Virus record (IMG/VR): IMGVR_UViG_3300017963_000231
Location: 22,829 to 86,828 of that record
From: a virus
DNA: 64,000 bases
Reading direction: 5' to 3' (one strand)
Shown: positions 4,603 through 35,415 of the stretch, piece by piece
Numbering within the stretch: the first letter of the stretch is position 1
How the letters are laid out: each line of letters starts with the position of its first letter
The notes under the pieces: generated by a model
Seen by the model: only the letters and a program-made list of their open reading frames with translations
Database searches by the model: none
Told to the model about the DNA's origin: nothing
Program-made: the position numbers and the translations under genes

Positions 4603-5514
4603 ATGGCATTAGGCGATTTGGTAGCAGGGATGGATGTTGAGGAGGAAGAGGCTCCTCGTGATGTTGGTTCAATTTTTCTTTCCGATCTCACTAATTCAAT
4701 TCAAGTAGCTCAACCGTTGGGTCGGTTGGTCAATTACCATGTAACTGAGATTCGTGATATGTGCCCACGCCGGGCGGCTTGGGTCCGTTGGTTTTCGTCT
4801 CAAGGGGCGGCATGGAAGCGGCAGACTCCGGCGGCTTTGCGGGTGACTTTTGATATTGGTCATTTTGCCCATGATTGGGTGACAAGTAAGTATCTTCGGA
4901 ATATGAATTCTGAGCGGTTTTATTTTGATATTGATAATACGGAGGTTCCCGTTACGCTTGACGTGGAAGGGGTCACTTTGGCCGGAAGCATGGATGCGTT
5001 GATCCGAGATGTGAGAGAGGAAGAGACGATTGGGTTAGAATTGAAAACAATCAGTGTAGATCAATTTAATAAAATGAGGGTTGCCAAAATCGATCACCGG
5101 TTTCAGGTTTATCTTTACATGCTCATGACTGGCATTAGGAAGTTCTTAATACTTTATATCGCGAAGCAATATCCCAAGGAATCATCTCCATTTAAGGTGT
5201 TTACAATTGATTTGGAGGATCCAAAAATTCTGAAAGAGTACGAGCAAGCTAAAAGGGAGATGGAAACCAAGTTGTTTTCTATTGGCGAGTGGCTTTTGAG
5301 TTCGGTTACATTTCCTGATAAGAAGAAGCAATGCAAGGATGAGTTTTGCCATGAGGCCATAAATTGTTTTTTTCAGGACGTGTGTTACCGAAAGAAAAAT
5401 TTGGTTGGTTTGTGTGTGGAATCTAAGGCGGCTACTATGGAACTTAAGGCGAAAGATATTGATCTTAGCCAATATGTGGAGGGGGGAGGATGGCCTTTCT
5501 TGGATTGGATTTAA
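4603..5514 (+). CDS. Cas4-like PD-(D/E)xK exonuclease
   Basis: N-terminal CPR, G..AH, GSMD, ELKT, Q...YM and a C-terminal Cys cluster. Confidence 0.8.
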   Translation: MALGDLVAGMDVEEEEAPRDVGSIFLSDLTNSIQVAQPLGRLVNYHVTEIRDMCPRRAAWVRWFSSQGAAWKRQTPAALRVTFDIGHFAHDWVTSKYLRNMNSERFYFDIDNTEVPVTLDVEGVTLAGSMDALIRDVREEETIGLELKTISVDQFNKMRVAKIDHRFQVYLYMLMTGIRKFLILYIAKQYPKESSPFKVFTIDLEDPKILKEYEQAKREMETKLFSIGEWLLSSVTFPDKKKQCKDEFCHEAINCFFQDVCYRKKNLVGLCVESKAATMELKAKDIDLSQYVEGGGWPFLDWI

Positions 5515-6095
5515 GTCTCACGAGCACGGGAATTGTGATTCTCTCGAAGTCAGGGGCTCTTTTGCATAGTAGTGCTTATGGGTACGGGCTTAAGAAGGCC
5601 GGGACTGACGATGAGATTAAGCGACTCTTGGATATAACTAATCGAATTGAATCCGTTGTTTCTGAGTTTCCCATTGAGTGTGTAGGGATCGAGGATTATG
5701 CGTACCGGAGGGCGGGCAGTGGTTCTCAGATTACCCGTCAGGCTGAATTGACAGGCGTTGTCAAGACTACTCTTTATCAATACCGGCTCAAGATTTTCGT
5801 GGTCGGTATATCGCAAGGGAGGAAGATTACGTTTGAGTGCCCGGTTGGCGTGTCTAATGCCGAACGTAAAGAGGGCATGGACATAAAGACAAAAGTGATG
5901 GAGTTGGTTAAAACTAAATATGGGTTGGATTTTGAGACTACTGATGAAGCTGATGCTTTTGTTCTTGCGGAGGCAGTACGGAAGCTGATTGTTCCTGGAA
6001 ACCCGTCTCCAGAGGCATTGAAAGAGCTTCAGAAACTAGAGAGGCGGCAGAAGGGGGCTCCCATTATCAAGAAAGGAGGTAAGCGTGGCAAATAG
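5490..6095 (+). CDS. RuvC-like Holliday junction resolvase
   Basis: LGLDLSLTSTG, IED and DEADAFVLA acidic motifs. Confidence 0.88.
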   Translation: MAFLGLDLSLTSTGIVILSKSGALLHSSAYGYGLKKAGTDDEIKRLLDITNRIESVVSEFPIECVGIEDYAYRRAGSGSQITRQAELTGVVKTTLYQYRLKIFVVGISQGRKITFECPVGVSNAERKEGMDIKTKVMELVKTKYGLDFETTDEADAFVLAEAVRKLIVPGNPSPEALKELQKLERRQKGAPIIKKGGKRGK

Positions 6096-6384
6096 CGTTA
6101 CGGTATCGGGGATGGTAGTAACTCCCGTTCATGAATTGAAAACTCTTTTTGATCATGACTATTTGAATTTCCGTGTAAAAGCGGATGCGGGAAAGGGGTC
6201 GGATATTTTTGTGACGGTCAATGTTTATAGTTATACGCAAATTAAGCTGGCTAAGGATCGAGGACTTAAAAAAGGAGATAGGGTGTGGGTTCAAGGTGAA
6301 CTCATGGCACGCATGACAAATGATTCCGGGCATGACGTAATTGAGGTCCGGGCATTGCAGTTGGATCCAGTTAAGGAGGTTTGA
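6085..6384 (+). CDS. Single-stranded DNA-binding protein (OB fold)
   Basis: NSVTVSG...LKKGDRVWVQGEL pattern. Confidence 0.75.
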   Translation: MANSVTVSGMVVTPVHELKTLFDHDYLNFRVKADAGKGSDIFVTVNVYSYTQIKLAKDRGLKKGDRVWVQGELMARMTNDSGHDVIEVRALQLDPVKEV

Positions 6385-6385
6385 G

Positions 6386-7462
6386 ATGGTTGAAGGTCTT
6401 GAAGATTTTGAGGTAATGGAAAGCGATATTGATGATGCAATTATTGCTGAGGGGGCTGATGCTCTTGATTTTAAGACGGCAGTGATGGAGCTTACGGCTG
6501 AGGAAAAGGACGCTCTTCGGCAGGAAATCAAGGATATTGTGGAGGGAATTGATACCAATATCCTGAAGCTGGGGGGATGTCTCTATAAGGTTCTTGGGTC
6601 CAAATCTTTCCTGGATTGGGGGTTCGAGACTTTTGATGAGTACGCGGAATATGAGGTAAAGCGTAAACGGCGGTGGTGTGAATATATCATGGGGGTCTGG
6701 TATGCCATCACATTTAAGATTCAGAGCGATGAAATCAGGGATCGACTGATAGCGATGGGGACTTCCAAGGCTGGGAGACTCGCGCCTCATATTACCGAGG
6801 AGAATGCTCAAGAGCTTTTGGATGAGGTTGAGACTCTAACCGTGGCCGAAACGGAAGGCCATCTCAGGAAACGCCGCCGGAAAGAAAAGGGGCTACCGGA
6901 GGAGAAAGAAGAGCTTCGGAAGGTGCAACTAGAGTTAACTGTATCACAACGGGACGTGATGAAGTCCGCGTTGGAGGTGGCTCGGGCCGTGGCGGGGGTC
7001 AATGGGACCGGGGAGCAACTTTCGCTGATTTGTACTGAGTTCCTTTCTTCGCATTCGGCTCCTGGGTTGGCTAAAGAGGAGTTGATTGCGGCTCATGTAG
7101 ACGGACTCAAGACGCTTACGGGGTGTAATTACGAGCCTTCAGTTGGCGGGGATATCCTGGCGGTTCTCATGCAAGAGGGGATGAGTAATCCTGAAGGTAT
7201 TAGGTCGAAGATTAAATCGACCGTGAAAGGTCCGCTTACATTGAAAGAGTTTGTGATATTCATGGAAAGTGGAGAGTTTCCGTCCACCGTGGCGACAATG
7301 ACTCCACCGATACCGGCTCCGGATCCGGAGGCATGGGGCGATGAAGAAAGTGATTCGGCAAGTGAGGAGAGCCCGAACGAGGAGATTTCGGGCGATGGTG
7401 GTGAGGTCCAGGATGAGGAGATGGATGAAGAGGGAACTGATGGAGAACTAGAAGATGAGTAG
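6386..7462 (+). CDS. Hypothetical protein with acidic C-terminus
   Basis: RBS AAGGAGG before ATG 6386; long ORF. Confidence 0.8.
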   Translation: MVEGLEDFEVMESDIDDAIIAEGADALDFKTAVMELTAEEKDALRQEIKDIVEGIDTNILKLGGCLYKVLGSKSFLDWGFETFDEYAEYEVKRKRRWCEYIMGVWYAITFKIQSDEIRDRLIAMGTSKAGRLAPHITEENAQELLDEVETLTVAETEGHLRKRRRKEKGLPEEKEELRKVQLELTVSQRDVMKSALEVARAVAGVNGTGEQLSLICTEFLSSHSAPGLAKEELIAAHVDGLKTLTGCNYEPSVGGDILAVLMQEGMSNPEGIRSKIKSTVKGPLTLKEFVIFMESGEFPSTVATMTPPIPAPDPEAWGDEESDSASEESPNEEISGDGGEVQDEEMDEEGTDGELEDE

Positions 7463-7651
7463 ATGGAAAGCCGGGTTTTACCAGTGGCTATCTTTTAGGT
7501 TGCCTCCTACTCTCGTGTATTTTACTGCGATTAGGCTAATGGCTCACGTAACTACGCATTAATACTCAACATATAATGTGAGTGATGCGCGTGCTTTGGA
7601 TGTTATACAATCTTGGGAGGATTTTTTTCAGATTTATGGTGAAAAAAGTTC

Positions 7652-7680
7652 TTGACAAACGGGAATAGACCGGTTATAAT
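7652..7680 (+). promoter_or_regulatory. Perfect-consensus sigma70 promoter
   Basis: TTGACA-17 nt-TATAAT with an upstream A tract. Confidence 0.88.
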
Positions 7681-7689
7681 GCGTTTAGT

Positions 7690-8160
7690 TCATTGAGGAC
7701 AAGGTTCATTGATAATTAGGTAGGCTTTCAATCGAGGGCGGTCATAAAAATGACCCGTGATGGAAACACAAGGCTAAGGCAGGTCCGACAAACCTTTGAT
7801 CCATCGAGATGAGAGACGGCCATCTCTCGTAGGGACCGTTGGAGAGGGATACTCCAAGGCCGCTTTCGATTGAAGGTCTACCTATAAGGTATTCAGATAG
7901 ATGGTCTAAGAAGGCCCTTATCCGGTTTCCCGATAACAAGGGTAGAAATTTATTCCGGATTTGTAGGAGGATTCAAGTTCCTTCAGTCTATTTGAATTAA
8001 CCATGATGACTTGGCTTTCCTGGCTCGGGAAAGTGGTAAGGGCCATTCGATCAGACCTTAAATTTCACGGAGCACTAAGTCATTCGCATGGACGGGTGAT
8101 TTAGGTGGATAACTAGGTTTGTGGTTGATAGTGAGGACCGGGAGTGGGAATCCCCGGCAA
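7690..8160 (+). ncRNA. Candidate large structured non-coding RNA (ends approximate)
   Basis: No + strand ORF of 60 aa or more until near the 3' end; long helices 7717-7741/7860-7884 and 7891-7902/7986-7997 whose non-Watson-Crick positions are all G-U; a third stem at 8001-8014/8075-8091; several internal hairpins. Confidence 0.7.
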
Positions 8161-8188
8161 GTCAAGTGGTGAATGGAGGGAATTTTTT

Positions 8189-8377
8189 ATGGAATTCAAT
8201 AAGCACAACAATGACTTAGTACGTAGGTTAAAGGTTCGCAAGGAGGAGTTCGAGGAGGAGAAGGAGATGCTCCTGAATCATCCTGGCGTTACTGAGGAAG
8301 GGCTAAAAATCACTTTGGCTTGGTTGGATCCTATGCTTGAGGATCTGGAGAATAAAATCAGGGGGTTAGAGGGATGA
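8189..8377 (+). CDS. Small helical hypothetical protein
   Basis: RBS GGAGG before ATG 8189; ATGA coupling to the next gene. Confidence 0.65.
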   Translation: MEFNKHNNDLVRRLKVRKEEFEEEKEMLLNHPGVTEEGLKITLAWLDPMLEDLENKIRGLEG

Positions 8378-8898
8378 CGGGTGGCGGTGTAGTCAAGGAA
8401 AAGGTTTTCATTGAAAAGGTTTTCATTGTTCACATGATTGGAAATCCTACTGATTTTCATGGGAATAAGACTAATTTTCTCAATCTTGTGGAACGGGTTA
8501 AGAAGATTGATGAGGTTAGAGGGTCTAGTTTTGCAGATATCGTGGAGCATTGCATCAAAGTGAAGCAAAGTCTTATCGAATCACGGCATGGAGTGCCCAT
8601 TAATGGAGTTACGGTGGTAATGGCTCCAGGAATGGAGCATTTTGCCATTTCGATTTGTAGTGGGATGGATCAGTTTAGCAGGAAAGTAGGCCGTCTCTTG
8701 GCTTTGAATCGGTTGGCGAATAAATTTGGAGTTCTGACCATGCGACCTAAGAAACGGGTGTATTATGAAGGATATCTGATCCTGATGCCTCCGAATAACT
8801 TCTTGGCCGATGAGGCTACCAAAAGAATCAAAATTCCCGATATTCGGGAGGAGTTGGCGTGGCTGGGGGTGTGGGATGGAGAAGAATCAGGCCGTTGA
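8374..8898 (+). CDS. Hypothetical protein
   Basis: Coupled ORF. Confidence 0.7.
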   Translation: MTGGGVVKEKVFIEKVFIVHMIGNPTDFHGNKTNFLNLVERVKKIDEVRGSSFADIVEHCIKVKQSLIESRHGVPINGVTVVMAPGMEHFAISICSGMDQFSRKVGRLLALNRLANKFGVLTMRPKKRVYYEGYLILMPPNNFLADEATKRIKIPDIREELAWLGVWDGEESGR

Positions 8899-9082
8899 GA
8901 AGCAGTGTTGTTTTATTTGTGAGAAACCGTCGAATTGTCATTGGAAATGCGATTGGTTTGACGGTTATTTTGATTGCAGTGGTAAGGTTCCTTGTGGGTC
9001 GTGTCGAAAGTTTAAGCGGTGTGAACCTTTAATTAAGGTTTGTGTTGTAAGTGACGATAATAAGTCAGTTTTACCAATTTGA
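8876..9082 (+). CDS. Small Cys-rich (Zn-binding) protein
   Basis: CCFIC, CHWKC and CGSCRKFKRC. Confidence 0.55.
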   Translation: MEKNQAVEKQCCFICEKPSNCHWKCDWFDGYFDCSGKVPCGSCRKFKRCEPLIKVCVVSDDNKSVLPI

Positions 9083-9099: not shown

Positions 9100-9876
9100 A
9101 TGAAAGAGGCTAAGGTAGGAATGATCGATCTCGGAAATACCGGGATGGATGTAGGGTCTGAGCTTTATGATATTTGGCGGGTGAAGATCAAACTTCGGAA
9201 TGTGGTTTACGGCGGGGTGCCCAAGGATCCGAAAATAATTCAGAAGTGGATTGATGAGAAGATCAAGAAGGCCATTAAGGCCGGGCATGACATCACGCCG
9301 GAAATCGCGGAGGAAGAGCGGAAAAGGATCATGGAGACTCTGAATCTGGATGAGGACTCTAAGTGGTGCGGGTTCAAGGATATCTATCAGGGCGAAGAGG
9401 TTGGGCCGTATCTGGACGGCTACAATTTCAAGGCGATGATCCGAGAAGGGGCTACTCAAACCGGAGCCATGCTCCTTCGGTTCTCAAATAACCGGGGACT
9501 TCGCCAGCATTATCAGCATGGGATGCATGTCAAGGCAGGGGACGGCAAAAGCGATATTATCAGGTTGGGTAAGGTGGATGGTCAAGAAGAGTTTGTGGGC
9601 CATGTCAAGACTCCTCAAGGCGAAAAATCCATCCTTTCTCGGCATGATTATGTGGGATCGAGGGAACTTGAATTCCAGGTTTGGAGCCTCGCGGTAGGTA
9701 TCCTGGATGATGAATTGTTGGCCACCATCTTGAAGGCTACTCAGGAGATTGGACTTGGGGCTTGCCGGTCCAGGGAGTTGAGCAAGTTCGATCTTGTGGA
9801 GATGGAGCGGATTCAGGTAGGGAAGATCGACCATTTTCTCAAGATGAAGGCCAAGAAAGGGAAAAAAGACGCATAA
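9100..9876 (+). CDS. Solo Cas7/RAMP-like RNA-binding protein
   Basis: N-terminal strand RVKIKLRNVVYGG, PYLDGYNFKAMIREGA (like the P.ipg.s.KG.lR motif of Cas7/Csm3) and C-terminal G-loop GLGACRSRELSKF; RBS AAGGAGG. Confidence 0.75.
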   Translation: MKEAKVGMIDLGNTGMDVGSELYDIWRVKIKLRNVVYGGVPKDPKIIQKWIDEKIKKAIKAGHDITPEIAEEERKRIMETLNLDEDSKWCGFKDIYQGEEVGPYLDGYNFKAMIREGATQTGAMLLRFSNNRGLRQHYQHGMHVKAGDGKSDIIRLGKVDGQEEFVGHVKTPQGEKSILSRHDYVGSRELEFQVWSLAVGILDDELLATILKATQEIGLGACRSRELSKFDLVEMERIQVGKIDHFLKMKAKKGKKDA

Positions 9877-9881
9877 TGTGC

Positions 9882-10000
9882 GGAGATTTTCCCACAAGGA
9901 GTATGGTTTTTTCAGGCGGATGATTTTAACGCTTTCGGGATCATTTTAGCGTGAGGGGATTCATTTCCGATTTTTGTGGATGATTGGGCTTCTTGTGGGA
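9882..10000 (+). repeat. Degenerate GGA-headed repeats with about 20-nt period
   Basis: GGA at 9898, 9918, 9938, 9957, 9978 and 9998, several followed by T(G/C)ATT. Confidence 0.5.
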
Positions 10001-10094
10001 AGTGGAGGGTCAACTTAGAGTTGACGGGAGTTATCGGCCCCTCCCGGCTGAGAATGACTTTGAAACGGCGGGGTTTCAGGGTAATTTGATCTTT

Positions 10095-10572
10095 GACAAT
10101 TCAGTGGGACAAGTCAGGCTAGATCAGTACAAATCATGGGGACTTATCTACTCTGTGCAATACTACTCAGTTCAAATCGAGAGGACTTTTCCTTGCGCTA
10201 CCTATCGGAACGGCAAGACTGATCCAGTCATCTCAACTTATATCAAATCGGAGCGACTTTGCGTTACCAGTCCACTCAGGTCGTTATGACTCATCGGATC
10301 ATCTCAACTCGTGTCTAGAGGACCAATCAGCTAGAGGCAAATCGGAACGTATCCATGGGACTAATCTAATCAAATCTGTTCTGAGAGACTACACTATACA
10401 ACGCACTACGAAACGGTATGACCACTCATGACGGAGCAAGGCGAAGCTATGCCCAGGGACTTATCTAATCAAATCTGTTCTGAGAGACTAGGCACTTCAT
10501 TACCTATCATTGTGACATATCAATTCGATTCCAGGGGACATATCAAACCGCTACTGATCGATACGGAGGGAC
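10095..10572 (+). repeat. Pentamer-periodic array: 15 units of GAC-(NNNNC)n-NNNNN plus a terminal GAC; candidate guide-RNA array
   Basis: All GAC-to-GAC distances equal 3+5k nt; 68 of 71 internal pentamers end in C (hand count). Confidence 0.92.
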
Positions 10573-10577
10573 AAAAT

Positions 10578-11165
10578 ATGAAATTAATGGTTTGCAATAA
10601 ATGCGGAGATGTGATTTTTCCTCGCGGGGAAGCGGGGATATGGAAGTGGTGTATTTGCGGAAACATTGGAGGCATGTACGAGGACGGGTTGAAGTTTCTT
10701 GTGGCGATTGACGATCCGGATTATGCTCGGGTTGTGGGGATCGATAACAATGTTCTCGTAGGGAACTGTGACTTAGGGGAGATATGGAAGCAAAAGCCGG
10801 GTGATCCAGCTTCCGGACGTAACCTGAAGGAGATATCCATTACCGAGGCCAGACGGGTTTACGGGTACTCTGGAGAGGCTTCGGATACTCTTGTGATCGA
10901 CTTGGCTAAGGTGGTAGGGGTAGTTCCATCTGATTCGAGCCCGTGCTTTTCGGAAATGGTGTTCCATCTTGTCATGAAGGCTGATCGTATTAATAGGGAG
11001 AGGCTCAGAGCTATCTTCCCTATTTATGTTCAAATGGTGGATAGATTCCAGCTTAAAGACGGGGTTATCGCTCATCCTCAGCATCCGGAGATGGGGTTTT
11101 ATGAGCCTTGCGGGGATAAGGGCTATCAGTGGCGATATCCTTTAGATACGGAGATAAGCAAGTAA
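10578..11165 (+). CDS. Zn-finger-containing hypothetical protein
   Basis: RBS GGAGG at the array end; CNKC...CICG. Confidence 0.75.
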   Translation: MKLMVCNKCGDVIFPRGEAGIWKWCICGNIGGMYEDGLKFLVAIDDPDYARVVGIDNNVLVGNCDLGEIWKQKPGDPASGRNLKEISITEARRVYGYSGEASDTLVIDLAKVVGVVPSDSSPCFSEMVFHLVMKADRINRERLRAIFPIYVQMVDRFQLKDGVIAHPQHPEMGFYEPCGDKGYQWRYPLDTEISK

Positions 11166-11169
11166 AAAC

Positions 11170-11196
11170 GGGGGCTTCGGCCCCCTAAATTTTTTT
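11170..11196 (+). terminator. Intrinsic terminator
   Basis: GGGGGC-TTCG-GCCCCC followed by a T-rich tract. Confidence 0.75.
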
Positions 11197-11235
11197 CATT
11201 TTTTTCTTGACAAACGGTTTTATAGGTGTTATACT
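11188..11235 (+). promoter_or_regulatory. Repeated strong promoter (copy 1)
   Basis: T tracts, then TTGACA(11207)-17 nt-TATACT. Confidence 0.88.
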
Positions 11236-22085: not shown

Positions 22086-22949
22086 GTGAGTGGTCGGATA
22101 CGATTAACGGAAGGTTTTCGGAGGTTGCGGCGGTCAAGGAGATTCCATGATATCCATGCTCTTATAGTGGCCGGGGTAGCATGTAATGAAATCGCGAGGA
22201 AGATTCAGATGGAGTGGCGGGAGATGAACACGGTATCCCAAGCAACGTTGGCAAAGCAACTGGAGAGGTATCGTAAGTCCCTGGAGGTAGGGGGGTTGGC
22301 TCCCCATGAGATTCCGGAAGAGGCCCGAAAGGCCAGGGGGGGTATCCTGGGTTCGGCGCTGGAAAAAGGGGGGTGGGCAGTATATGATGCGGAAACGTCC
22401 TCATCTAAGGTGGATGAAGATCCGTACAAAGGTCGGACTAAGGCAGAGATCGAGCAAGCATCTTCAGGTGATTTGGCGAGGATGGTTGAAAAAGAGAAGG
22501 CAATCCCTACTGACGGGGCGGTAGATGTAAAGGAGGGGCTATCCAAGCTACTCGATATTCAGATGGCTCGAATCGCGATGGAGGTAAAGAATGAAGAGAG
22601 TATAGGGAAGCTCATGCCGGGGACGGGGTTAGAAATCAACGTAGCCAAGGATATACTCAAGTCTCTCCATGTGGTGCAGGGGGATCTAGGGTTGACTCAC
22701 AAGGAACCTGATCAGCTATCAGTAGGTATAGGGATCGGTCCTTCCAAGGATTTGACGGAAGCATTGTCTAAGTCTGGATTATTAAAGACTATTTCTGACA
22801 AAAACTCCCGAAAACGTATTTTAAAAGCGCTTCAGGGGGAGACCCCTCTAGGGGGGCAGACATTTTTGCCTGAAATGTCGGAAAATGCGGAAAATGAGGA
22901 TGATGTGGTCCAAGTAGTTGAAAATAAAGGAGGAAATGGGGATGGATAA
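22086..22949 (+). CDS. Hypothetical protein, candidate terminase small subunit
   Basis: N-terminal HTH-like segment, helical body and position upstream of TerL; function inferred. Confidence 0.45.
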   Translation: MSGRIRLTEGFRRLRRSRRFHDIHALIVAGVACNEIARKIQMEWREMNTVSQATLAKQLERYRKSLEVGGLAPHEIPEEARKARGGILGSALEKGGWAVYDAETSSSKVDEDPYKGRTKAEIEQASSGDLARMVEKEKAIPTDGAVDVKEGLSKLLDIQMARIAMEVKNEESIGKLMPGTGLEINVAKDILKSLHVVQGDLGLTHKEPDQLSVGIGIGPSKDLTEALSKSGLLKTISDKNSRKRILKALQGETPLGGQTFLPEMSENAENEDDVVQVVENKGGNGDG

Positions 22950-28758: not shown

Positions 28759-28806
28759 CAATAATGAAAGGTTGAAGGGCCTTTCCAACCAAAGGAGGAT
28801 AAAGAC

Positions 28807-28980
28807 ATGGCAAAGAATCAAGCGGGATTGACTGGACCAATCGGTGGGACTGCCAAGCGGACTTCTGCGGTGATCGACACTGGAAAGCAGAATAACGATC
28901 CGATGGCTTCTCCGGATTCCAAATCCAGCATGAAAACTCCCAATCTGACTGCTCGCAAGCAACGCCGGATGGCAGAGTAA
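28807..28980 (+). CDS. Small basic protein (57 aa, not in the track)
   Basis: RBS AGGAGG; MAKNQAGLTGPIGG... Confidence 0.65.
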   Translation: MAKNQAGLTGPIGGTAKRTSAVIDTGKQNNDPMASPDSKSSMKTPNLTARKQRRMAE

Positions 28981-28993
28981 GGGGGGCGGGGCC

Positions 28994-29191
28994 ATGGCCC
29001 GTAGGAATGATAAGTTCCTGCGTCAAGCAACGGAAGCTATTGCTTCTAATGCCAAACCGGGTTTCCATGGCGAAGTCACCGTCCAGGTGAAAATTCAGAA
29101 TGGGGTTATCCAGAGTGGTCATGTAGAGAAGTCTACTCGGGTGTCCCGGCAAGGGAACACTACGTTAGTAGAAAAGATCAAACTGGATTGA
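28994..29191 (+). CDS. Small protein (DUF2292-like)
   Basis: FHGEVTVQVKIQNGVI pattern. Confidence 0.55.
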   Translation: MARRNDKFLRQATEAIASNAKPGFHGEVTVQVKIQNGVIQSGHVEKSTRVSRQGNTTLVEKIKLD

Positions 29192-29227
29192 GCTAGTCGG
29201 TATTAGCCGGGCCTCATGGTATCAGGC

Positions 29228-29267
29228 AAGCCGCTAAGGGGTTATTATGCCCTTTAGCGGCTTTTTT
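29228..29267 (+). terminator. Intrinsic terminator
   Basis: AAGCCGCTAAGGGG / CCCTTTAGCGGCTT stem followed by a T run. Confidence 0.8.
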
Positions 29268-29281
29268 ATTTGGGGGTCAAT

Positions 29282-32200
29282 ATGGAGCTTGATAAATCCT
29301 TTGAATTCGGGTTAACGGTTTGTAAGGCCCGGAGGGATGAAGAGGGCCGGATGATTGTTACGGGTTATGGTTCTGATACCATGACTGATGGGCATAAAGA
29401 GAAGTTTGATACTCACGCCATTAAGGGAATGCTGGATGCAGTTCGGAACGGCGTTCCTCTCATGACTTCACACAAGGATTCGTTTGGGTTTGGAGAATCG
29501 TTCGATGGTCGGATTGTTCCCCTGGATAGCGGGGAGGTCGGGCTTGAGGTTGATTTTCTTTTGAAAGAGAAGTACCCGCAAGCGACGGATCTTTTTGAGG
29601 CTATTCAAAGCGGAAAGTGTGATCAGCAACTTTCCGTTGGCGGGAAATTGAATATGTCCAATCCTCGGGCCGCTTACCTTCTTAGGGACGGTACTAAGGT
29701 ACTTCATGATTTTGATTTGGATCATTTTTGCACGACTCGGCCTAAAAAGGCGGCGAATCCTCGAACTCATTTTAAGGCCGCAATGTTTGAATCCCTGGAA
29801 AAGGATGGGATGACCGATGAGGTCTGGAAAACATTGGAGGTAGATGATTCTGAGGCTGAAAGGCTGGCTCAGGTGGGGGGAAGCATCGAGAAATTTCTGA
29901 TGCTCAGTCCTTCCATGGATTCGCCTATGACGGGGAGTGTTAATCGGGAAGATGATCCGCTTGGCGGTAATGACAGGTCTTTTGAGGATTTGCCGTCGTT
30001 TAAGCAAATGCGTGATGCTGGGTACAATGCTTACCACGTTCCGCTTTATTGGGAGGGTCATCCCGTTCAACTGGCGATGCGTGATGTTCGGATGGATCGG
30101 AAAAAGTGCTTGGAGAATGTCGGGCGGTATAAATTCGATGAGATTGAACCGATGGTACGAGCCAGTGGGGTAAAAAACCCGGTGGTAGATAGTAAAGGGA
30201 TGATTTCTCTTTACGGCGATTATAGTAATGTCGGGAATATGGATGATCGACCGGTCGGTAAAGATCCTACGGGAAAACGGGCCGTTCGGTATTATCGAAT
30301 GTTCCCGTCGGCAATAAACAATGACGGTGAACTGGAATATGATGATCTTGGGCGACTGAAAGGTGGCGGATTCTTGTTCATGAAGGATGGGCGAAAAGTC
30401 CCCGGTGAGGATGATTACTCCCCCTTCTGGAGAGTTCCTTCCATGACGGAAGCACAAGTCTTGATCCCGGATGCCGTGGCCAAATTGGCGGAAACCACTG
30501 AAAAGTCTGATCTTGAGGATACGGTGGAGAAGAGCATTAATCTTACCCGAACTTTGCTTATGCCCTTGTCCCTGCGGAAAATCAAGCTCAGGACTAAACC
30601 CACGGATGACCATTCTCATGAGTTGAGGCTTTTCCTTGATTCCTCTGGCAAGGTAGTTGACGGATATACCTTTGACGGCGGATCATCCTTTGCTCATGGC
30701 CGGAGGGCTCAGGCTACTCAGGATATGAATGACCGTGAATCGTTCCGGCTTCGCCATGACCACGTTCATATCGTAGTGTTTACGGGAGGCAAGGCCGTTC
30801 TTGCCGAAGCCTTGGGGCATACTCATGAGTACGAGTTGCCTGAAATGGAAAAGGAGACAAGCGAAATGGAGTTTCACAAAGAGAAGGTACGGCATAGGAC
30901 CGTGAATAGCGGCGGCTACTTTGCCGTGGGCGAGAAGGGCATTGGAGCGGAGGTCTATGAGGAAGCTCCTAAATCCGCTGATCTTACTCAGACGGGTCAA
31001 AGTTCCTATGCACTTCTCTTGGAGAGTGAACACGGACAGCACATTCGCCAGCTTGGGAAGATTTCCAGGGCAGAGGCTCAGAAGATGGCTCTTGGGGCCG
31101 TCAAGCCTGAAGGTGGGAAAGTGGTAGTTGGTCGGTCGATTGGCCGTCTCAATAATCGCAATCTCTACCGGATGCTTTCAGAGTTCTCTCCGGCGGACGG
31201 GAAAGAGGAGGCTGAAAAGGCGGTGCCTTTCCGGTCTTACCCACTTTCGGGTAACCGGCGGTGGTCTTTTACGGCGAATGAAGGGAATGCGATTCTCAAT
31301 CAGTTCGGCGGTGAGGATTCAGAAAGAGCGTGGAAGGCTTACGAGAATGCTCATGCGTGGTACAACTCGGATGCTGGTAATGGTACTCCTCGAACTAAGG
31401 GAGCCTATGCTTTGCCTCATCACAAGCTGGAAGATGGTTCTATGCGAACCTTCCCCGGCGGTGTGATTGCGGCTATGGCGGCTTTGAATGGTGCGAGAGG
31501 CGGTGTTACTCGCATTCCGGCGAATGAGAGGCAAGGGGTTTATAACCATCTTTCTCAGCACTATCGTCAAATGGATATGACTCCCCCGGATTTGCGGGGA
31601 GCCAAGGAAGGTTATAAGGAAGATATCGGGGTTGGCGAGACTGACTCTGAGTATCTGGATCAATTCATCAATTTCCATAAGGAGCAAGGAGTAGATCTTG
31701 ATTGGCTTCCTGCTTTTATGGATGAGTTTTCAAAAAGTGAAGAGGAGGTAGACAAGATGGGCGGTGAGGAAAAGAAAAAGGATGAGACCACTGCTCCTCC
31801 CGTAGAGGAGACTGCGGTGGACGAAACTACGGATGATAAGGAAACTGAGGCTCCGAAAGAGGAAGCCAAGCAAGAGGAAACCGTGGAAACCAAGACTGAT
31901 ACCGGACTTCTGGAGAAGTTTATGGTGGGTCTTGGGCTGAAAAAGGCTCCCAATCCGAAGGTTGAGCGCACACTGACTCTGATGGAATCGGCTCAAGATG
32001 CTCTTGAGGGCGTGGAAATCGGGGAAGATGATGCCGCTCCCTTGATCGGACAAATGGCCAAGCTCGTTTCCATGGTCAAGGCCGGGGTAGAGGCGGGAAA
32101 GATCGACCTGGATGATCTTCCTGCTCGCGATGCTCGGTTGCTCAAGGCGTTCCTGGATGGGAATCCGGTGGAGGCTCCGAAAGAGGCTCCGAAACCTACT

Positions 32201-32684: not shown

Positions 32685-33986
32685 ATGTCGATTAACGAAG
32701 AACTCATTGAAAAAACTCTTGAAAGCGGCGATTTTTTTGCCGGTGGGGAGATTAACCCTACTCAGCAAGCGGAATTCGTTCGGCTGGTCAAGGATTTTTC
32801 GGTAATGTTGAGCATGGTCCGTTTTGTGGATATGCCGACTAAACGTTATCTCATTGACAAGATCCATCTTGGGGAGCCCATCACGCGGGGTATTGCGGAG
32901 AATACCAATGCGATGACCAACCTGATTTCCCCGAAGATGAATCAGATCGAGCTTACCACGAGCAAGATCAAGACTGCTTATGCCATCACCACTGAGGCCC
33001 TTCAGGTTGCCCTTAATCAGGAGGATCTTGAGGATACTGTGCTGGAAATGGTGACTAAGCGGTATTCAACTGACGTGGAGATTCTCGCCATTTCGGGCGA
33101 TGACACCGTGACCGGTACTACTCCTTACGATGAACTGATCAAGGTTCTCGATGGATGGGACAAGATCACTGATGACGCTCAGGTGGTGGATGCCGCTGGC
33201 GCAACCATTTCCAAGGCGGTGTTCACTGAGGCTCTGCGGACCATGCCTCAGCAATATCTCCAGGATCCTGATCTTCGGTTCCTGATGTCCAGGATGACCA
33301 ATATCGATTGGATGGATGAGATTGCGGATCGGGAAACGTCCTTGGGTGATGCGGCTTACCGGGGTGACGCGGCTGGTATGATGGGTGTTCCGGCTTCCAT
33401 CGTTCCTCTGATCCCCTCGAACAAGCCCGTTGCCGTGGCGGCGGCTACTCCAGCTATCGTGGTCGGCGCTCAGTATGGTCCTTTTGAGATTGTCACTGGA
33501 TCGAATGATCTGATCAACCTGGATATCGACAATGCCGGTGCCCACGAAGTTACCCTGACTCAAGGGGTGTGGGAGGCTATCCGGATTGCGGCCCAACTCA
33601 ACGCGGATGCTACTTTTGCGGCTAATGGCCTTGTGGCTTCTGACAATGATGGGCGGCTTCAACTGGCCTCTTCGACTACGGGTGCGACTTCGGAGATTGA
33701 TATCCAGGCGACTTCAACTCCGGGACAGTCGGCTTATGCCGCGCTCGGTTTGACCATTGCCGCTACTACGGGTGCCGCCGCTGGTTCGGGTTCTCTTAAT
33801 GAGGGAACTCTCATTTGGCTGGCCAACCCGATGAACTTCATCTTCGGGATGCTGGATTCGACTCGCGTATTCTCCGAGTTCAACAAGGATTATGATCGTG
33901 TTGAGGTCGTGATGTATAACGAGGTTGCGGTACAAGTGGAAAATCTGGAATCCATCGTGAAGGTCACGAATATCGCCCGCAAGTAA
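32685..33986 (+). CDS. Major capsid protein
   Basis: GEINPTQQAEFVRLV...DVEILAISGD pattern; strong RBS; position. Confidence 0.88.
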   Translation: MSINEELIEKTLESGDFFAGGEINPTQQAEFVRLVKDFSVMLSMVRFVDMPTKRYLIDKIHLGEPITRGIAENTNAMTNLISPKMNQIELTTSKIKTAYAITTEALQVALNQEDLEDTVLEMVTKRYSTDVEILAISGDDTVTGTTPYDELIKVLDGWDKITDDAQVVDAAGATISKAVFTEALRTMPQQYLQDPDLRFLMSRMTNIDWMDEIADRETSLGDAAYRGDAAGMMGVPASIVPLIPSNKPVAVAAATPAIVVGAQYGPFEIVTGSNDLINLDIDNAGAHEVTLTQGVWEAIRIAAQLNADATFAANGLVASDNDGRLQLASSTTGATSEIDIQATSTPGQSAYAALGLTIAATTGAAAGSGSLNEGTLIWLANPMNFIFGMLDSTRVFSEFNKDYDRVEVVMYNEVAVQVENLESIVKVTNIARK

Positions 33987-34010
33987 GCGGACGATGATTA
34001 GGGGGTAGTC

Positions 34011-34466
34011 ATGGCGAAATTTGATCTAGTGATGGATCAGAGCAAACGAGTGGCTTGCCCGTCCGGTCGAAAGTATTACTTTGTCGCCGGGTATCCGCTG
34101 GATATTCTGGACGATGGGGATAAGGAATTTTTGAGAGGCCAACCGGATTTTTTTCTGGAAGTGGCTGATCAAGGTAAAGTTCCGGCTACACCGGATAAGG
34201 AGGAGGGGTCTCCCCCGCAATCGGCCCCTCCTCCTGCCCCTAAAAAGGGGAAGGCGGCTAAACCCAAAAAGAAAAAGAGGACTTATGACCTGGATAAGCT
34301 GGATGCTGATCGGGTTATCGAAGATGAACTTCTAGCGAAGAATTCTGATGGTCCTTGGAATTGCCCGATCTGCGGACGCAAGAATATCAAGACTAAAAGT
34401 GGGTTGCGGGCTCATGTAGGGTCTACTAAATGTGTGGAAGCGGCGAGGGAAAAGCTAAGTGAGTAA
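34011..34466 (+). CDS. Head-associated hypothetical protein with C-terminal Zn finger
   Basis: CPICG...LRAH...C. Confidence 0.65.
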   Translation: MAKFDLVMDQSKRVACPSGRKYYFVAGYPLDILDDGDKEFLRGQPDFFLEVADQGKVPATPDKEEGSPPQSAPPPAPKKGKAAKPKKKKRTYDLDKLDADRVIEDELLAKNSDGPWNCPICGRKNIKTKSGLRAHVGSTKCVEAAREKLSE

Positions 34467-35415
34467 GTACATGACATTGGCGAGACTCCGGGGGTTGGGT
34501 ATTACGGTTGCCCAACTCTCGGATGCTCTTGCTTTAGAGCTTATCAAGAATGTGTCGGATTCTCTTGATGCGCTTACTCAGCAAGTTTTCTCTCCTCAGC
34601 TTGAGATTCATCGGACAGATGGGAATAAAAGCCGGTTGACCCATCATCGTAGCTTGCTTCCGATATTGAAGGTGTTTTCGCTCAATGTGGATGTGGATAA
34701 GAATCGATCTAACTATTGGGATGAACATAGGTACATTTTCGGAAGGAATCTGCAAAACGGTAGTTATGACTTGACGCGGTATGAAATATCTTCGGATACC
34801 AAGTATCGGCTTCTTTCACTTTTGGCGGGAGAGTTTCCGCTTGGGGTTGAGAATGTTCTTATTAATGGGGTATTCGGGTTTCTCGAAAATCGGAAGGCAT
34901 TTCAGACCGAATTAAGTGCGGAATTGGCGATGGGGGATACGGTAGTGTCAGTGGCGGAAACGTCTAATAGCACTGGACGTATCGAGGTTGGCGATTTTGT
35001 ATTGGTTGAGATTGAGGCGGCTACGGGTGAGGCTCCGGCTCTTACCTATGTCGATATTGTTCAATCTATATCTGCAACTAACCTGACCGTTGATGCCGTG
35101 CAAGATCAGGCCGGTCTCCCCGTAGCCGTGGGAGTAAAAGTCTACTCATTCGGGGCTTTTCCAGGTCCGTTGGTAGAGGTAATGGATGCTTTACTACTTC
35201 GGGCTTGGGATGATTCACCTTGGAATCCAAATGGTTCGGGAAGTACAGATAAACGATTGCTGAGTGAAAAAGTCGATAATTATAGCTATCAACTGGAATC
35301 GGAATCAGTAGCGGCAAGTCGGGCCGGGGGTTACGGTCTAATAACTGGTAGTGTGAGGTTGGATAAAGTGCTCCAACAATATTGCCGTCCTGGGGGGTTT
35401 GTGGGGTATGTCTAG
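34459..35415 (+). CDS. Head-tail adaptor
   Basis: SEKVDNYSY...DKVLQQY C-terminal motif; position. Confidence 0.7.
   Translation: MSKYMTLARLRGLGITVAQLSDALALELIKNVSDSLDALTQQVFSPQLEIHRTDGNKSRLTHHRSLLPILKVFSLNVDVDKNRSNYWDEHRYIFGRNLQNGSYDLTRYEISSDTKYRLLSLLAGEFPLGVENVLINGVFGFLENRKAFQTELSAELAMGDTVVSVAETSNSTGRIEVGDFVLVEIEAATGEAPALTYVDIVQSISATNLTVDAVQDQAGLPVAVGVKVYSFGAFPGPLVEVMDALLLRAWDDSPWNPNGSGSTDKRLLSEKVDNYSYQLESESVAASRAGGYGLITGSVRLDKVLQQYCRPGGFVGYV

Follow-up and report, generated by a model that had tools for sequence, protein, structure and literature searches.

We describe here a leader of about 500 nucleotides (nt) that lies directly behind a sigma-70-type promoter in a phage genome and that is a real feature and, by predicted folding stability, exceptional among the segments scanned. 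The analysed DNA, called the window below, is a 64,000-nt stretch (positions 22,829–86,828) of the 86.8-kb IMG/VR record IMGVR_UViG_3300017963_000231, a record estimated to be 67% complete. The leader (window positions 7687–8188) heads an operon which, on the strength of a modelled protein structure and a pentamer array, is a non-canonical VIPR-like locus, i.e. an instance of a system already described in 2026 preprints, and by sequence and covariance-model searches it belongs to no known RNA family. Our preferred explanation, which we put at a little under an even chance, is that it is a fast-evolving, cis-acting structured 5' leader of this operon, serving as a processing and stability module.

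The predicted fold is what sets the leader apart. According to ViennaRNA, the + strand of 7685–8190 has a minimum free energy (MFE) of -184 kcal/mol, compared with a mean of -148.1 (standard deviation 6.3) for dinucleotide shuffles (z -5.66), and none of the 100 shuffles is as stable. For a genome-wide control, the MFEs of 500-nt segments (step 125; n = 572, spanning positions 1 to about 72,000 of 86,828) were regressed on base composition; the segment starting at 7673 has the largest excess stability (rank 1 of 572, residual z -3.73) and the overlapping segment at 7548 comes second. The next over-stable segments, at 28798–29420 (residual z -2.9) and 33798–34550 (about -2.7), are both in coding regions.

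The MFE structure divides into three domains (Table 1). The closing helix of domain 1 pairs 7717–7739 with 7862–7884 (23 bp including four G-U pairs; 25 bp if 7740–41/7860–61 are added), and hairpins at 7740–7745/7750–7755, 7809–7816/7823–7830 and 7839–7844/7852–7857 lie inside it. An initial annotation of this DNA had drawn the same helix at 25 bp with a GAGATG/CATCTC hairpin inside; the helix and its four G-U pairs are retained, and the hairpin is replaced by a register alternative (7809–7816/7823–7830). For domain 2 the proposed closing helix (7891–7902/7986–7997, 12 bp, two G-U) is found unchanged in the MFE structure, and a hairpin at 7966–7984 with a T-loop-type 7-nt loop, UUCAAGU, adjoins the 3' strand of that helix. 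Domain 3 was correctly expected to contain a CUUUCC/GGAAAG hairpin (8014–8022/8026–8034); its supposed closing helix, 8001–8014/8075–8091, occurs only as a competing pairing, as the MFE structure closes the domain by 8000–8004/8166–8170 and 8007–8013/8158–8164. Segment 8005–8013 is thus predicted to pair either with 8158–8164 (MFE) or with 8075–8083 (the helix first proposed). We note that 8005–8013, 8075–8086, 8093–8104 and 8158–8164 make up two mutually exclusive pairing schemes, and these competing schemes could, on the modelled structures, act as a conformational switch.

The claims of the initial annotation on the surroundings of the leader, namely a perfect promoter followed by about 500 nt with no credible start codon, agree with what we see: the promoter matches the consensus TTGACA-17-TATAAT at all 12 positions, and the first credible start is ATG 8189, preceded by a Shine-Dalgarno sequence (GGAGGG) at 8175–8180. 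The + strand open reading frames (ORFs) within 7687–8188 are one of 53 amino acids (aa; TTG start, 7839–8000), one of 33 aa (8003–8104), both without ribosome-binding sites, and the start of a GTG frame. Transcription would begin about 7 nt past the -10 box, at the 11-nt motif AGTTCATTGAG, the core of which, GTTCATTGA, occurs again at 7704–7712. We found no intrinsic terminator between the leader and the next ORF (8100–8190), and the sole + strand terminator-like site is the weak hairpin at 7966–7984 in domain 2. Because no terminator precedes the next ORF, the leader as drawn is a 5' leader, and a separate RNA gene is not established. The large multi-domain non-coding RNA first suggested therefore survives as a predicted multi-domain structure with a strand bias, not as a gene of its own; that it heads the transcription unit of the Cas7-like gene downstream fits the same finding, the unit ending only at the terminator at 11170–11195.

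The -35 region of the promoter and its flank are conserved in all related loci (L003–L007, see below). As a side observation, the phage has a promoter family consisting of a T-run, TTGACAAACG, a conserved spacer, TATACT and then a conserved leader, with at least seven clear copies in the record (window positions 11207, 12802, 62911 and 63514, and at least three upstream of the window). The promoter of the leader studied here has the -35 block of this family, with its own spacer and a perfect -10 box.

The initial annotation had seen no resemblance to tRNA, tmRNA, RNase P or an intron and had named Rfam, in particular ROOL, GOLLD and introns, as the check; on both counts the searches leave the leader without a family. 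None of the Rfam 15 covariance models (including GOLLD, ROOL, OLE, HEARO, RNase P, group I/II introns, 6S, tmRNA and pRNA) matches the whole window at the gathering threshold, and on 7450–8400 at E up to 10 there are three noise matches, all at E >= 1.7 and far below gathering. ARAGORN calls no tRNA or tmRNA gene in the window or in L003–L007. Nucleotide searches agree: blastn (distant setting) of 7500–8400 against 50,697 phage records gives no match, and the leader sequence is single-copy in the 86.8-kb record. A pattern of the -10 box plus the 11-mer occurs in 92 stretches of IMG/VR, which we read as chance since none has a -35 box at promoter spacing. The -35 box plus the 11-mer occurs in 10 stretches in GTDB genomes, four of them in Desulfobacterales or Desulfococcaceae metagenome-assembled genomes, and several of the 10 look coding by eye.

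The protein encoded 1 kb downstream, labelled Cas7-like from the start, does have a Cas7-type RAMP fold as judged by structure modelling. The AlphaFold model from a 73-sequence alignment has a pLDDT (predicted local distance difference test) of 91.6, compared with 51.9 for a model from a 7-sequence alignment, and its top PDB matches in Foldseek are Cmr4, Csm3 and type VII Cas7 (E 1e-6 to 1e-4, template modelling score 0.35–0.52). The protein family has 537 clusters at E <= 0.001, and 6 of 73 members show weak Cas6_C or RAMPs matches in Pfam; PHROGs and Pfam give no match for the RAMP protein itself, the 62-aa ORF, gene C or gene E. A homologue at 28% identity is found in Microcystis phage Mae-JY09.

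The RAMP gene is followed by about 700 untranslated nt (9877–10577) before gene E, the last gene of the unit, and this stretch holds an NNNNC pentamer array. Its runs begin with RRGAC, are mostly 3 nt apart, carry no structured tails and are co-oriented with the genes; the minus strand showed no promoter here. Position 5 of each pentamer is C by the definition of a run, position 4 is T in 50% of the pentamers at this locus, and, relative to the rest of the genome, the array is rich in C and poor in G. The grammar of the array, rather than its sequence, is conserved in related loci (L003 6166–6842, L005 1941–2322, L006 2842–3977).

According to the available text of the preprint that introduced them, VIPR systems combine an ancestral RAMP protein encoded by the phage (Vipr) with an accessory gene and with guide RNAs made of pentamer repeats; the intergenic regions on either side of vipr are long, and the repeats also come in alternative forms (bioRxiv 10.64898/2026.04.26.720920). 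Non-canonical pentamer motifs are also reported in the text of a further preprint (10.64898/2026.10.21.760802). We assign the operon to this system as a non-canonical, VIPR-like locus because it encodes a RAMP-fold protein followed by an NNNNC array of a kind that its relatives share. As a control, we located the published SUSP1 locus in KT454805, where YNNGG runs flank two genes on the genes' own strand. The RAMP family profile has no match in the first 50 kb of SUSP1 by hmmsearch, and hhalign of this profile against the 195-aa SUSP1 protein gives a weak alignment (E 0.0029, probability 10.7%, 115 columns) that includes the glycine-rich loop.

As far as those preprint texts describe VIPR, the present locus shares with it a Cas7-type RAMP-fold protein followed by a same-strand array with 5-nt periodicity, the phage-borne setting and the long non-coding stretches beside the RAMP gene. 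It differs in its NNNNC array of RRGAC-headed runs without structured tails, in the weak similarity of its RAMP protein to SUSP1 Vipr, and in having a leader without pentamer repeats, which is thus not a VIPR guide RNA (vrRNA). In the passages of the 2026 VIPR preprints that were consulted, no large structured VIPR leader is described.

Table 1. Features of the leader, its operon and its surroundings (window coordinates), and leaders of the related loci
Feature	Position or length	Strand	Remarks
PD-(D/E)XK exonuclease gene	4603–5514	+	upstream of leader
RuvC-like resolvase gene	5490–6095	+	upstream of leader
Gene A, 373 aa, no function assigned	6341–7462	+	last gene before leader promoter
Sigma-70-type promoter	7652–7680	+	12/12 consensus matches
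11-nt motif, probable transcript 5' end	7687–7697	+	start placed about 7 nt past -10 box
Domain 1 (predicted)	7717–7884	+	closing helix encloses four inner hairpin arms
Domain 2 (predicted), cloverleaf-like four-way junction	7891–7997	+	closing helix 7891–7902/7986–7997, 12 bp, 2 G-U
Domain 3 (predicted), multi-way junction	8000–8170	+	z -4.19 folded alone
62-aa ORF with Shine-Dalgarno GGAGGG	8175–8377	+	ATG 8189; first gene past leader; no family match
Gene C, 174 aa	8374–8898	+	conserved in all relatives; no family match
Vipr-like RAMP-fold (Cas7-like) protein, 258 aa	9100–9876	+	by structure model and Foldseek
NNNNC pentamer array, non-canonical VIPR-like guide array	10095–10572	+	72 pentamers in 13 runs
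Gene E, 195 aa, possible accessory gene	10578–11165	+	conserved in relatives
Intrinsic terminator closing the unit	~11170–11195	+	next phage promoter begins at 11207
Leader of the window's own locus (W)	~500 nt		three domains; z -5.66
Leader of L007	440 nt		three domains; z -5.52
Leader of L006	~150 nt		~105-nt near-palindromic hairpin; z -6.12
Leader of L003	~130 nt		weakly structured; z -2.4
Leader of L004/L005	~70 nt		unstructured; z 0

For comparison with the window's own locus (W in Table 1; leader 7687–8188), a metagenome scan with the RAMP alignment provided five related loci (L003–L007), of which L004 and L005 are near-identical, leaving four distinct relatives. By blastp, they share the order gene A, conserved promoter, leader, optional gene B, gene C, RAMP gene, pentamer array and gene E. 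The leaders in this slot range from absent structure to folds as over-stable as that of W. In W, L007 and L006 the + strand fold scores better than the minus, and the + fold of W and L007 has three to five times as many G-U pairs as the minus fold (27 versus 10 in W, the + fold of which also has one A.C 1x1 mismatch; 28 versus 6 in L007). Protein identity does not place W and L007 as nearest relatives of one another, yet they alone have the motif AGTTCATTGAG, located in L007 at 1060–1070 and in both at the predicted transcript start. L007 carries both a structured leader and gene B.

Further likenesses between the leaders are few. L006 and L007 have a 22-nt piece in common (E 0.003 in a tiny database). 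A hairpin with a UUCRANN loop beside a closing stem is found in two leaders only (W 7966–7984, L007 1453–1471); the T-loop-type hairpin of L003 (4588–4604) is in coding sequence, and the + strand of the 86.8-kb genome has seven such hairpins, two of them in a tRNA region. A tRNA-Gln lies at record positions 9372–9445, about 13.4 kb before the window start, and just before this gene (region 9318–9445) a T-arm plus acceptor-like minihelix ending in ACCA, which ARAGORN does not call. Folded alone, the last domain of L007 (1376–1476) is predicted to form a cloverleaf with the loop UUCGAUU and is more tRNA-like than domain 2 of W; its T-arm matches that of the tmRNA model at 11.6 bits (E 0.013; gathering 47). 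An equivalence noted by eye between the 12-bp helix of domain 2 in W and the closing helix of L007 domain 2 and L006, with compensatory changes, was dropped, as the alignment was unsupported by the tools.

A diverged relative is represented in run X2 by a contig of 151 nt, which matches 7740–7809 with five differences; judged by eye from its flanks, the closing helix would be shorter there and the 7806–7830 hairpin would be replaced by a different one. In four examined DNA runs, a near-identical strain has no change in 7687–7852 and three upstream, too few to judge constraint. Searches of IMG/VR with gene A, gene C and the RAMP alignment recovered no relative; the AAA protein led to one locus at 32%, and the gene A alignment to one at 24% (L111), which is gene-dense and without a RAMP gene. 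The RAMP alignment found no related locus in GTDB genomes.

Some further features of the region deserve mention. Every long ORF is on the + strand, and the GC skew has strongly positive values all along. The space between gene C and the RAMP gene is taken up by a 90-aa Cys-rich ORF without a Pfam match (8810–9082), which is read in a different frame from gene C and overlaps its end. Gene C has a 15-nt tandem duplication close to its start (8398–8427); two DNA runs contain a strain variant with only one of the copies, which amounts to a 5-aa indel. In L004, an extra DPBB_1 (lytic transglycosylase-like) gene (2470–2928) sits between gene A and the operon promoter.

Under the explanation we prefer, a transcript starting at about 7687 would run through the leader, the 62-aa ORF, gene C, the RAMP gene, the array and gene E to the terminator at 11,170–11,195. 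The leader RNA, not itself a guide, would fold into three self-contained multi-helix domains, whose long duplexes (of 23–25 and 12 bp) and cloverleaf, with its T-loop-type hairpin, may offer defined entry points for host RNases (of RNase III type and RNase P/Z type). At the same time, the structured leader would protect the 5' end of the transcript, which is long, is untranslated in part and has to supply the guide array 2.4 kb downstream. We infer transcription, the 5' end, processing and function alike from the predicted features. Structured counterparts at the same slot in L007 and L006 speak for this explanation. So do the perfect promoter with no terminator ahead of the next ORF, the z-score and rank of the + strand fold, its lead over the minus strand and its surplus of G-U pairs, the start motif and the UUCRANN hairpin common to W and L007, and the X2 contig. 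High structure persists while sequence and length vary, which fits selection for structure as such and not for one precise fold; and because structure recurs in a promoter-proximal slot where sequence and length are free and presence is optional, a cis-acting leader is favoured over a ribozyme and over a fixed protein scaffold.

Several observations weigh against a processing and stability leader. The structured leader is absent in L004/L005 and weak in L003, so the operon does not need it. Past the promoter, the 11-mer of W and L007 and the 22-nt piece of L006 and L007, the leaders cannot be aligned, and covariance models built from the L006 hairpin (R1) and the L007 cloverleaf (R2) match none of the other leaders significantly (on W the top score, overlapping domain 2, is 6.7 bits at E 9.9); for both reasons a common fold of W and L007 cannot be claimed. 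The size of 500 nt is far above what a 5' stabiliser needs, the proposed RNase roles are purely conjectural, and no RNA sequencing runs with the leader sequence are listed. The reverse complement of 7685–8190 also folds well (MFE -142.1, z -4.28). The initial annotation had taken G-U tolerance as a mark of selection on a + strand RNA, and G-U pairs are indeed far commoner in the + fold; the + strand is G-rich, which favours such pairs without any selection, and the asymmetry is thus supportive and not decisive.

Some of these points suit other explanations. The leader might be cut into a stand-alone, trans-acting structured RNA, either a VIPR partner (e.g. a scaffold for the tail-less NNNNC guides, or an RNA involved in their processing) or a tRNA-mimicking decoy against host or rival factors. 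Its three autonomous domains and its rank as the most over-stable of the segments scanned point this way, as do the cloverleaf-like junction with its T-loop-type hairpin and the cleaner tRNA-like domain of L007; moreover, SUSP1-type guides are described as having a structured 3' tail, which is missing from the guide units of this clade, and long intergenic regions beside vipr genes are on record, both according to the available text of 10.64898/2026.04.26.720920. Yet L003 and L004/L005 share the RAMP gene and array grammar without a large RNA, L006 has only a hairpin, there is no terminator or defined 3' end, R1 and R2 reveal no conserved fold, and ARAGORN and Rfam find no tRNA or tmRNA, so that we consider such an RNA unlikely. 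The more specific proposal, i.e. that this would be the first example of a large RNA with a tRNA-like module working with a VIPR-type system, as a trans-acting processing or scaffold RNA or a phage-versus-phage decoy that is lineage-variable and lost or shrunk in some relatives, strikes us as distinctly improbable. A DNA-level origin, through palindromic insertions resembling miniature inverted-repeat transposable elements (MITEs) or recombination scars in a variable slot with RNA structure as a by-product, we hold to be somewhat less likely than a trans-acting RNA. Inverted repeats do bound each domain (25 bp, 12 bp), all four mismatches in the 25-bp repeat are transitions, slot length varies from 70 to 500 nt across relatives, the minus strand of W folds as noted, and the L006 leader is a nearly perfect palindrome (minus strand z -5.67; R1 scores 49 bits on its own reverse strand). 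Against insertion stand the copy number (one in the 86.8-kb record and no match in the phage collection, MITEs being recognised by several copies), structure throughout the 500 nt and not at its ends alone, the consistent G-U excess on the + strand, and a 5' motif conserved exactly at the predicted transcript start.

A third possibility is a cis-acting, put-like processive antiterminator which lets RNA polymerase read through the untranslated, C-periodic, G-poor array to gene E. Put RNAs and boxA-type elements sit at such promoter-proximal places, and the leader is directly behind the promoter of a unit with some 700 untranslated nt before its last gene, in which the array shows the C enrichment and G depletion given above. 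Relatives with the same array have no such leader, though, no similarity to Rfam antiterminators is seen, and known antiterminator elements are several times smaller; we find this role hard to credit. That the leader is a VIPR guide RNA placed upstream of the operon, or what is left of a protein gene, was tested and rejected, and we assign next to no probability to either. In SUSP1 a single guide RNA precedes the vipr operon, according to the available text of 10.64898/2026.04.26.720920, and we find there a 12-unit YNNGG run (KT454805 29170–29229). The 7687–8188 stretch, in comparison, has no NNNNC run of at least 4 units, NNNNG only at shuffle level and no YNNGG or CCNNR run of at least 3 units, and its lag-5 autocorrelation is at background (0.235 versus 0.389 in the array); lacking 5-nt periodicity, the leader is not a guide array. 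Pairing between leader and array RNA (duplexfold on whole sequences) is no better than the best shuffle, by a method ill-suited to such lengths. As for a decayed gene, relatives do have gene B in the slot, but tblastn with three of their gene B proteins finds no coding remnant in the leader (nothing below E 0.65), and L007 holds the structured RNA and gene B together.

Structured leaders are familiar from phage early operons, e.g. the lambda pL/N leader (with an RNase III hairpin and nutL), the put RNA of HK022, the RNase III sites of T7 and the 5' stabiliser of Bacillus phage SP82. The leader described here resembles them in its strong early-type promoter, its untranslated and strongly folded nature, the first gene of the operon coming next, and duplexes of the length of RNase III substrates; it differs in being two to seven times longer, in its three multi-branched domains and in the lack of sequence or Rfam similarity. 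GOLLD and ROOL, large structured phage or prophage RNAs whose function is not known, are similar in that they have hundreds of nucleotides and multiple domains and are phage-borne. They are conserved, with covariation across many genomes, whereas our leader matches neither of the two models even at E up to 10 and has one known positional counterpart (L007), whose fold cannot be shown to be identical. Transcripts other than tRNAs may also contain tRNA-like modules, examples being the tRNA-like domain of tmRNA, the bacterial Y RNA YrlA and the RNase P-processed leaders P1 C4 and P4 CI. Common to these and the present leaders is a four-way junction with a UUCRANN-loop hairpin abutting the closing stem (W 7891–7997; L007 1376–1476). 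In contrast, there is no ARAGORN call, no normal-size D-loop, no CCA and no free acceptor end, and W has no tRNA or tmRNA match in Rfam at E up to 10.

If the element is merely a variable structured leader, it would be a modest addition, illustrating that RNA structure can be selected for while the sequence is not conserved. VIPR has been described only in 2026 (as far as the available preprint texts go), and the leader would give a concrete handle on how long, mostly untranslated VIPR transcripts are stabilised and cut into guides. Should it prove true that the leader acts in trans with the RAMP protein or the guides, it would be a new component of an RNA-guided system.

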